Source: Escherichia phage pO103. Taken from it: a stretch of 39,837 nucleotides of DNA. Shown here in pieces: positions 10,096 to 10,515 of the stretch (position 1 is its first letter; every line of letters begins with the position of its first letter). The notes under the pieces are model-generated. The model saw only the letters and a list, made by a program, of their open reading frames with translations, was not told where the DNA came from and did not search any database. The position numbers were made by a program, and so were the translations under genes. Location: the sequence record OR204651.1; one strand, written 5' to 3'.

Positions 10096-10515
10096 ATGAA
10101 CGTGCGGGAGAAAATCCTTGAGAGAATCAAGGTGACTCCTGCTGGATGTTGGGAGTGGACAGGTGCTGTGAACTCTAAAGGGTATGGTCAGGTATGGTGT
10201 GGAGACTCTAAGAAGACTCTATACTGTCACCGCATTATGTCCAACGCCCCAAAAGGTTCTACAGTCCTGCACTCCTGTGATAACCCATTATGTTGCAACC
10301 CTGCGCACCTATCAATTGGTACTCCTAAAGAGAACTCTGATGACATGGTGAATAAGGGTCGCTCTCACAAAGGATACAAACTATGTGATGAAGATGTGAT
10401 GGCTATTATAGAGTCCAGCGAGTCCGGCAAGCGCCTATCGCAGACCTATGGAGTCTCCCAACAGACTATCTGTGACATTAAAATGGGGAGGACTTATGGC
10501 AGGTTACGGCGCTAA
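10096..10515 (+). CDS. HNH-family endonuclease (homing-endonuclease-like), gene 2.8 position
   Basis: 139 aa; motif YCHRI...[19 protein letters not shown] plus C-terminal HTH-like segment; start coupled to 2.5 stop, 3-prime end overlaps gene 3. Confidence 0.75.
   Translation: MNVREKILERIKVTPAGCWEWTGAVNSKGYGQVWCGDSKKTLYCHRIMSNAPKGSTVLHSCDNPLCCNPAHLSIGTPKENSDDMVNKGRSHKGYKLCDEDVMAIIESSESGKRLSQTYGVSQQTICDIKMGRTYGRLRR

Follow-up and report, generated by a model that had tools for sequence, protein, structure and literature searches.

Between the genes for the single-stranded DNA-binding protein (gene 2.5) and endonuclease I (gene 3) of Escherichia phage pO103 lies a short open reading frame with an HNH signature (referred to as HNH1), and this locus raises the question of what kind of nuclease is encoded there and how the gene came to occupy that position. 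The window, i.e., the whole stretch of DNA that was analyzed (39,837 nt; OR204651.1), is the complete genome of a T7-group phage. Its closest relatives are phages of Berlinvirus (~90-93% nucleotide identity across 85-89% of the first 25 kb), in which both JSS1 and A7 are classified. In our reading, HNH1 is the intact ortholog of T7 gene 2.8 and probably a free-standing homing endonuclease gene of the HNH_3/His-Me finger type. An earlier note on this DNA had correctly seen an HNH nuclease gene of the mobile, homing type, but did not recognize the orthology with T7 gene 2.8, and its further proposal of one endonuclease family spreading inside the genome did not stand (see below).

The reading frame and its two neighbors were as follows, and the coordinates and junctions described in the earlier note (139 amino acids, beginning after the gene 2.5 stop as TAAATG and ending 20 nt into gene 3) were confirmed.

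9394..10095, + strand: gene 2.5, single-stranded DNA-binding protein of 233 amino acids (Pfam SBB_T7, 292 bits), the upstream flank of HNH1.
10096..10515, + strand: HNH1, free-standing HNH (His-Me finger) endonuclease gene of 139 amino acids, the T7 gene 2.8 ortholog (open reading frame and family matches).
10485..10491, + strand: Shine-Dalgarno sequence of gene 3, GGGGAGG, which also codes for Gly-Arg of the HNH1 C-terminus and forms the right-hand edge of the insert.
10496..10948, + strand: gene 3, endonuclease I (Holliday-junction resolvase; Pfam Phage_endo_I, 279 bits), the downstream flank of HNH1.

The ATG of HNH1 (10096-10098) abuts the TAA of gene 2.5 (10093-10095), and the junction therefore reads TAAATG. 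At the other end, the stop codon (TAA; 10513..10515) lies within gene 3, the start of which (ATG at 10496) was set by homology to T7 gp3 (MAGYGAKGIRK...); the overlap is exactly 20 nt, and these first 20 nt of gene 3 double as the last codons and stop of HNH1. The HNH-less allele of phage Berlin, with a spacer of 19 nt between genes 2.5 and 3 (TAA TATATGATA GGGAGG TCAC ATG), shares GGGAGG with pO103 in the junction alignment. The left edge of the insert is the stop codon of gene 2.5, the right edge falls within this GGGAGG (the gene 3 Shine-Dalgarno sequence), and the last seven codons of HNH1 together with TAA come from the start of gene 3 itself (ATGGCAGGTTACGGCGCTAA). The element adds ~390 nt. 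Since the insert supplies a Shine-Dalgarno sequence for gene 3 and is completed by 7 codons and a stop that already belong to that gene, neither neighbor is disrupted.

Expression signals were sought around the locus, and the relevant promoter was located upstream of gene 2.5.

9318..9341, + strand: phi2.5-type promoter for the phage RNA polymerase, TAATAGGACTCACTATTGGGGAGA, matching in position the annotated phi2.5 promoters of T7 and Kvp1.

The promoter core ACTCACTA occurs 15 times on the + strand of the pO103 genome (1.8 expected). The cores nearest to HNH1 are at 9325 and 11405, with no ACTCACTA between gene 2.5 and HNH1; because the next core is found only at 11405, HNH1 has no promoter of its own. 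From this arrangement, the phi2.5-type promoter is the one expected to drive a transcript carrying gene 2.5, HNH1, gene 3, and gene 3.5. In a scan of 9200..11600 for sigma-70 promoters and intrinsic terminators, counts were near the shuffle means, with nothing on the + strand near HNH1. The RNA fold at the HNH1 start (10050..10140) did not exceed shuffled sequences in stability (z -0.18), and a hairpin masking the start is therefore unsupported. The final codons of gene 2.5 (GAC GGT GAC TTT TAA) include a Shine-Dalgarno-like GGTGA (10084..10088), 7 nt before the ATG of HNH1. Translational coupling to gene 2.5 would fit this geometry of abutting stop and start codons, GGTGA, and the lack of a separate promoter, and low-level translation of HNH1 by reinitiation after gene 2.5 is plausible from the sequence layout.

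The HNH signature and the helix-turn-helix-like C-terminal tail, both noticed previously from the letters alone, were located in the protein and in its predicted fold, respectively.

10270..10335, + strand: catalytic core of HNH1, H59-S-C61-D-N-P-L-C66-C-N68-P-A-H71-L ... N80 (invariant residues and profile alignment with I-PpoI).
10387..10482, + strand: C-terminal three-helix (helix-turn-helix) domain of HNH1, residues 98-129, putatively DNA-binding.

HNH1 itself scored 23.7 bits with HNH_3 (PF13392), just below the curated gathering cut-off of 24.8, and 23.8 bits with zf-His_Me_endon, and it matched PHROG 59 "HNH endonuclease" at an E value of 1.5e-28. A word-indexed protein search returned 29 homologs. 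HNH_3 matched 23 of the 26 aligned family members (E<=1e-3) and zf-His_Me_endon 20 of them, and the profile comparison proposed earlier for this frame thus came out in favor of an HNH family. When the protein was used in tblastn, a match was found in 1444 phage records. The PHROG 59 match, these records, and a dN/dS ratio of 0.13-0.15 (see below) together argue that HNH1 is no chance reading frame, and its membership in the wider HNH/His-Me finger family is not in doubt.

The 14-residue HNH motif corresponds to residues 59-72 (nt 10270..10311). Across the 26 homologs, H59, C61, C66, N68, P69, H71, L72, and N80 were invariant, and C18 was nearly so. An AlphaFold2 model built on the alignment of these homologs (mean pLDDT of 87) contained strands at 56-59 and 72-75 followed by a helix at 77-86, by which the conserved catalytic His, the structural Asn, and the metal-binding residues are placed in a predicted beta-beta-alpha arrangement. 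In the predicted overall fold, a beta region at the N-terminus is followed by a beta-beta-alpha-metal core bearing a Cys/His zinc loop and then by the C-terminal helix-turn-helix. In Foldseek, the top match of the model was I-HmuI (probability 1.00), and I-HmuI and I-PpoI were its best structural matches; the model therefore resembles His-Me finger homing endonucleases in fold. At the sequence level, a single-sequence search of PDB sequences with HNH1 gave no match, and only profile and fold searches reached these two enzymes: the profile search recovered I-HmuI (aligned over residues 34-140) and I-PpoI weakly, at an E value of 0.021 each, and aligned the HNH1 core with the I-PpoI segment SHLCHNTRCHNPLHL...DDN (the stretch from the catalytic His to Asn). 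The residue roles in I-PpoI and I-HmuI are established. Carried over to HNH1, they predict H59 as the general base and N80 as a metal ligand, and C61, C66, and H71, possibly with C18, are predicted to form a structural zinc site.

The two enzymes differ from HNH1 in other respects. I-HmuI (PDB 1U3E), an HNH homing endonuclease encoded by an intron of Bacillus phage SPO1, is a nicking enzyme with only 18% identity to HNH1 and without a Cys-rich zinc loop, whereas HNH1 is a free-standing gene with a C-x4-C-x4-H loop. I-PpoI (PDB 1A73), a His-Cys box homing endonuclease, is a dimer encoded by a eukaryotic intron; it has a second zinc site but lacks a helix-turn-helix domain, and its sequence similarity to HNH1 is limited to ~35 residues.

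A much closer counterpart was found in T7 itself. Gene 2.8 of T7 (NP_041971; 139 amino acids; 9857..10276) starts immediately downstream of gene 2.5, and its last 20 nt lie within gene 3 (10257..). HNH1 and T7 gp2.8, both of 139 residues, aligned without gaps at ~81% amino acid identity (tblastn), and the identity to a T7 variant protein (P0009) was 77%. The two genes are thus alike in length, in their slot between genes 2.5 and 3, in their start, in their overlap, and in a C-terminal ...GRLRR read from the gene 3 start; they differ in the start codon (GTG in T7, ATG in pO103) and in the genus of the phage (Teseptimavirus for T7, Berlinvirus-like for pO103). Since slot, 20-nt overlap, and full-length similarity all match, HNH1 is the ortholog of T7 gene 2.8. 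The HNH1 protein was also 100% identical to the "HNH endonuclease motif protein" of Salmonella phage SWJM-03 and 86% identical to a BP12A protein, and the JSS1 copy, annotated "Gp2.8/Gp7.7 contains HNH endonuclease motif", showed 99-100% nucleotide identity. HNH1 is therefore of an already known kind, with identical or near-identical genes already annotated (JSS1 and SWJM-03). T7 genes 2.8, 3.8, and 7.7 have been treated as homing endonucleases, and all three were deleted without loss of viability (bioRxiv 10.1101/2025.09.07.674715). A literature search for biochemical studies of T7 gp2.8, including cleavage, target site, and biased inheritance, found none, only engineering and deletion uses. 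No genes of the T7 3.8, 5.3, or 7.7 type were found in the pO103 genome.

We then considered whether the slot is regularly occupied, since a comparison of presence and absence among relatives had been proposed previously as a check on mobility. Among 80 IMG/VR loci recovered using the gene 3 protein, the slot between genes 2.5 and 3 was empty in 73 (gap of -1 to 19 nt), and an insert of 395-433 nt was present in the other 7. The HNH proteins in these filled slots were 35-81% identical to HNH1 (81, 74, 41, 40, 38, and 35%, plus 41% for BSP161). Among named phages, the slot was empty in Berlin, Kvp1, and A7, and filled in JSS1, SWJM-03, BP12A, FE44, RN5i1, and T7. In Kvp1 and A7, the latter a close relative of pO103, genes 2.5 and 3 overlap as TAATG with no HNH gene. 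A query made of the joined flanks was matched over at least 80% of its length by 782 records, and the matches were mostly contiguous and in a single piece among the 60 records listed. In BSP161, the flanks were 91-100% identical to those of pO103, yet the slot contained a different, unannotated HNH gene (154 amino acids) reaching 70 nt into gene 3. The locus is thus clearly polymorphic by this comparison, and the mixed occupancy together with the different HNH proteins in BSP161 and the IMG/VR loci indicates that the slot has been invaded by several HNH lineages. As judged from these genomes, HNH1 shows the sporadic presence and absence at one fixed site that is expected of free-standing homing endonuclease genes. 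Variation of this kind, with HNH genes present in some T7-like phages and absent from others, has been attributed to mobile elements (PMC4925675).

In comparisons with T7 and with an ortholog from a Yersinia phage, the dN/dS ratio of HNH1 was 0.13-0.15, the synonymous divergence being ~1-2 substitutions per site, which indicates that the protein is maintained by purifying selection. This observation bears on two explanations other than homing. HNH1 may be kept mainly because it benefits the phage, either as a DNA-end or DNA-binding decoy blunting a host defense or by cutting the genomes of co-infecting competitors; such a role is compatible with homing, and as the main reason for the presence of the gene we consider it possible but rather unlikely. 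The ratio means that the protein sequence matters, and selection of this strength would suit a beneficial function as well. Phage HNH homing endonucleases, even when catalytically dead, have been reported to attenuate GAPS4 defense, and T7 lacking genes 2.8, 3.8, and 7.7 was outcompeted by the wild type only when GAPS4 was active, but the share of gene 2.8 was not separated from those of 3.8 and 7.7 (preprint 10.1101/2025.09.07.674715). On the other hand, most relatives, including A7, do not carry HNH1, a sporadic distribution that would be expected more of a selfish element than of a gene with general benefit, and nothing in the pO103 genome ties HNH1 to a particular defense system.

Alternatively, HNH1 may be a decaying relic, i.e., a former homing endonuclease that became fixed, no longer cuts, and is heading for loss. 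In the homing cycle model, homing endonuclease genes are expected to degenerate once they are fixed in a population, and the HNH_3 score of HNH1 is marginal (23.7 bits), both of which count in favor of this explanation. T7 also tolerates the deletion of gene 2.8 (10.1101/2025.09.07.674715). However, HNH1 is of full length with all family-invariant residues intact, the low dN/dS ratio extends over ~1 synonymous substitution per site, and the slot is polymorphic, not fixed, among close relatives; a relic is therefore highly improbable.

The divergence from T7 varied along the locus. Nucleotide identity between pO103 and T7 was 64-76% in gene 2.5 and 70-80% in HNH1; within gene 3, it was 90% over the first 70 nt and 59-76% beyond them. 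In the same comparison, pS was 0.55 for HNH1, 0.34 for gene 3 codons 1-23, and 0.93 for gene 3 codons 24-147. Conversely, against the HNH-less phage Berlin, gene 3 of pO103 was 69% identical over its first 70 nt (84-92% further downstream) and 69-74% identical over its first 150 nt, versus 84-94% elsewhere. A candidate tract was delimited on these grounds.

10496..10565, + strand: flank tract apparently moving with the HNH1 cassette (co-conversion-like), the first 70 nt of gene 3 (nucleotide identity and pS versus T7 and Berlin).

The element and its adjacent flank thus appear more alike between distant genomes than the surrounding genes are, and the pattern of divergence is evidence that the cassette was transferred together with a short flank in the pO103 lineage. 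The low synonymous divergence at the extreme start of gene 3 could stem partly from dual coding (7 codons) and from constraints on translation initiation. As a candidate immunity polymorphism, the N-terminal sequence type of gene 3 was compared with slot occupancy, which it did not predict: the same 23 residues are encoded by many empty alleles from Klebsiella phages, and two filled loci (L083 and L084) carry the Berlin type. Because the 5' type of gene 3 does not track occupancy over the group as a whole, the flank tract is to be taken as evidence for co-transfer in the pO103 lineage and not as an identified immunity polymorphism.

The same data weigh against the explanation that HNH1 is an ancestral gene of the T7 group which descended vertically and was cleanly lost many times, with no active mobility. 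The same slot and 20-nt overlap in two genera, Teseptimavirus (T7) and Berlinvirus, would agree with such a history. However, pure vertical descent should have left HNH1 as diverged as its neighbors, whereas the flanks were only 59-76% identical to T7 at the nucleotide level, and the pS values of HNH1 (0.55) and of gene 3 codons 1-23 (0.34) were far below that of the rest of gene 3 (0.93). Since unrelated HNH lineages (35-41% identity) also occupy this slot, we give vertical descent very little credence.

The earlier note had further claimed a paralog with the same CDNPLCCNP(A/S)HL core after gene 4. This second copy (referred to as HNH2) was indeed present, with 41% identity to HNH1 over 132 residues (E value of 5e-28); a six-frame tblastn search and a motif scan of the pO103 genome revealed no further HNH copies beyond these two.

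12949..13277, + strand: flank tract apparently co-inherited with HNH2, the 3' end of gene 4 (primase/helicase; 97-99% nucleotide identity to Kvp1).
13243..13686, + strand: HNH2, HNH plus helix-turn-helix endonuclease gene of 147 amino acids (HNH_3, 46.9 bits; HTH_28 and HTH_23 matches).
13681..13703, + strand: phi4.3-type phage promoter directly after HNH2, with ACTCACTA at 13688..13695 (aligned with JSS1 and T7 promoters).

HNH2 shares its first 35 nt with the 3' end of gene 4, and its stop codon lies directly against the next phage promoter. As a separate observation, both HNH inserts start directly after the stop codons of genes with acidic, Phe-terminated tails (GAC TTY TAA). At the nucleotide level, only Kvp1 carried a match to HNH2 (97.8% identity), and the Kvp1 protein, in the same slot, was 98% identical. 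The next protein relatives, at 69-73%, were found in coliphages such as N30, with the gene between genes 4 and 4.3 (69% for N30 and C5), and HNH2 was absent from JSS1 and A7. Accordingly, JSS1 has HNH1 only, Kvp1 has HNH2 only, and pO103 has both. Within 12949..13277, pO103 was 80-84% identical to the HNH2-less JSS1 versus 97-99% to Kvp1, and upstream of 12949 the identities to both were ~84-99%, depending on the bin. This ~330-nt stretch of gene 4 is a second co-conversion-like tract, and the pattern seen at HNH1 thus recurs independently at HNH2.

Since either copy is far closer to genes in the corresponding slot of other phages than to the other copy, HNH1 and HNH2 look like independent acquisitions from two slot-specific lineages. 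That they arose by duplication and spread inside the pO103 genome, as the earlier note had supposed, is extremely unlikely: the common domain order, the CDNPLCCNP(A/S)HL core, and the 41% identity over 132 residues speak for a shared family, but the same-slot relatives are closer for both HNH1 (100% in SWJM-03, 86% in BP12A, and ~81% in T7) and HNH2 (98% in Kvp1, and 69% in N30 and C5), JSS1 and Kvp1 each carry one copy only, and each copy has its own flank tract common to donor-like relatives. The identity of HNH1 as a terminase-associated HNH protein (a packaging factor like HK97 gp74) was rejected, because it sits between the SSB and endonuclease I genes with no packaging neighbors and its best fold matches are homing endonucleases.

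Classical intron-less homing is the best-supported account of HNH1, within which we infer cleavage (by a nick or a double-strand cut), target, immunity of the HNH1-carrying genome, and translational coupling. HNH1 would be transcribed from the phi2.5 promoter together with genes 2.5, 3, and 3.5, and ribosomes ending at the gene 2.5 stop would restart on the adjacent ATG to yield a low level of the protein. On co-infection with an HNH-less relative, HNH1 would use its beta region and helix-turn-helix to bind the genome of that relative over a long asymmetric site, located at its 2.5/3 junction or close by, and would nick or cut there with H59 as the general base and N80 holding the metal. The recombination machinery of the phage would then repair the break from the HNH-carrying genome, by which the gene and a short flank would be copied in.

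The free-standing homing endonuclease systems of T4 are established and resemble this account. The Seg/Mob genes of T-even phages (e.g., SegG and MobE), like HNH1, are promoter-less intergenic insertions between essential genes of DNA metabolism, are sporadic among relatives, and are co-inherited with adjacent flank. The Seg proteins differ from HNH1 in belonging to the GIY-YIG nuclease family and in their phage group, and cleavage sites and marker exclusion were demonstrated experimentally for the T4 elements.

Because the acidic tails of gp2.5 and gp4 bind the polymerase, the phage cannot easily alter them. Conceivably, the two slot-specific HNH lineages might recognize related targets, namely the codons of these acidic Phe-terminated tails (...GAAGACGG(N3-6)GACTTYTAA), a conjecture that we regard as distinctly unlikely. 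If it were true, HNH lineages unrelated to each other would compete for the 2.5/3 junction as a landing pad and displace one another there, as in BSP161, and an anti-defense benefit might come on top.

Beyond annotation, the significance of the locus is small, the by-products being the evidence that HNH lineages have replaced one another in a single slot and the position of both inserts right behind the stop codons of genes with acidic tails. Natural pairs of filled and empty alleles are available for both slots: pO103 or JSS1 versus A7, Berlin, and Kvp1 for 2.5/3, and pO103 or Kvp1 versus JSS1 for 4/4.3. Such pairs may be useful for mapping the cleavage sites of gp2.8-type enzymes and for testing the anti-defense claim made for T7 homing endonucleases, and, for phage engineering, HNH1 and HNH2 mark dispensable insertion slots. 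For annotation, HNH1 should be described as an HNH homing endonuclease of the gene 2.8 type, and HNH2 as a separate HNH gene of the 4/4.3 slot; the counterpart of the latter in Kvp1 is annotated "2.8" despite its position after gene 4.

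The last ~330 nucleotides of gene 4 (primase/helicase; window 12949..13277) were 97-99% identical to those of phage Kvp1, which carries only HNH2 (the 147-aa paralogous HNH gene in the gene 4/4.3 slot, window 13243..13686), but only 80-84% identical to those of JSS1, which carries only HNH1 (the 139-aa ortholog of T7 gene 2.8 in the gene 2.5/3 slot, window 10096..10515); upstream of 12949, Kvp1 and JSS1 were approximately equally close to the window. On this identity profile, window 12949..13277 is a recombination tract joined to HNH2. A codon change within the tract (AGC to AAT) created the HNH2 start ATG inside the tail of gene 4, and codons 1-11 of HNH2 (window 13243..13277) are the coding sequence of the gene 4 C-terminal tail, read in another frame. 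The HNH2 relatives in phages N30 and C5 aligned only from residue 10-11 onward, namely, just past the gene 4 stop.

Two HNH genes in relatives concern these slots (coordinates count within each record's handle):

L005 4344..4787, gene "2.8" of Kluyvera phage Kvp1 (NC_011534), downstream of gene 4
L002 1188..1652, 154-aa unannotated HNH ORF of Salmonella phage BSP161 (MG471392), occupying the 2.5/3 slot

The label "2.8" in Kvp1 came from similarity to T7 gp2.8; the actual 2.5/3 slot of this phage is empty. The name is misleading: by lineage, this is an HNH gene of the gene 4/4.3 slot (HNH2 type). In BSP161, the HNH ORF starts directly after the gene 2.5 (SSB) stop, and its 3' end lies 70 nt inside gene 3 (endonuclease I). 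Its identity with HNH1 was only 41%, and the flanks were 91-100% identical to those of the window. This looks like the exchange of one HNH lineage for another in the same slot. Annotation of this ORF is missing from record MG471392.

The HNH1 and HNH2 inserts each begin directly after the stop codon of a gene encoding a protein that ends in an acidic tail plus Phe (the slash marks the junction):

window 10075..10098, end of the gp2.5 tail and HNH1 junction, ...GAAGACGGTGACTTTTAA / ATG
window 13254..13280, end of the gp4 tail and HNH2 junction, ...GAAGACGGACAAGACTTCTAA / CTC

The likeness of the two junctions may reflect related target sites for the two paralogs, or simply the similar protein tails.

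No counterparts of the T7 HNH-type genes 3.8, 5.3, and 7.7 were found at the T7 positions (window 11400..11532, 17089..17109, and 19247..19645). At the first, the gene 4 promoter region comes immediately after lysozyme; at the second, gene 5 is followed, after 19 nt, by a 100-aa ORF at the T7 gene 5.5 position, unrelated to HNH1 or HNH2; the third holds a 132-aa ORF that has no relationship to the HNH family.

In the frame of gene 3, the longest ORF begins at ATG 10448, 16 codons 5' of the conserved start at 10496 (window 10448..10495). Homology and the Shine-Dalgarno sequence (10485..10491) favour 10496 over 10448 as the gene 3 start, and automatic callers could therefore assign a wrong start here.
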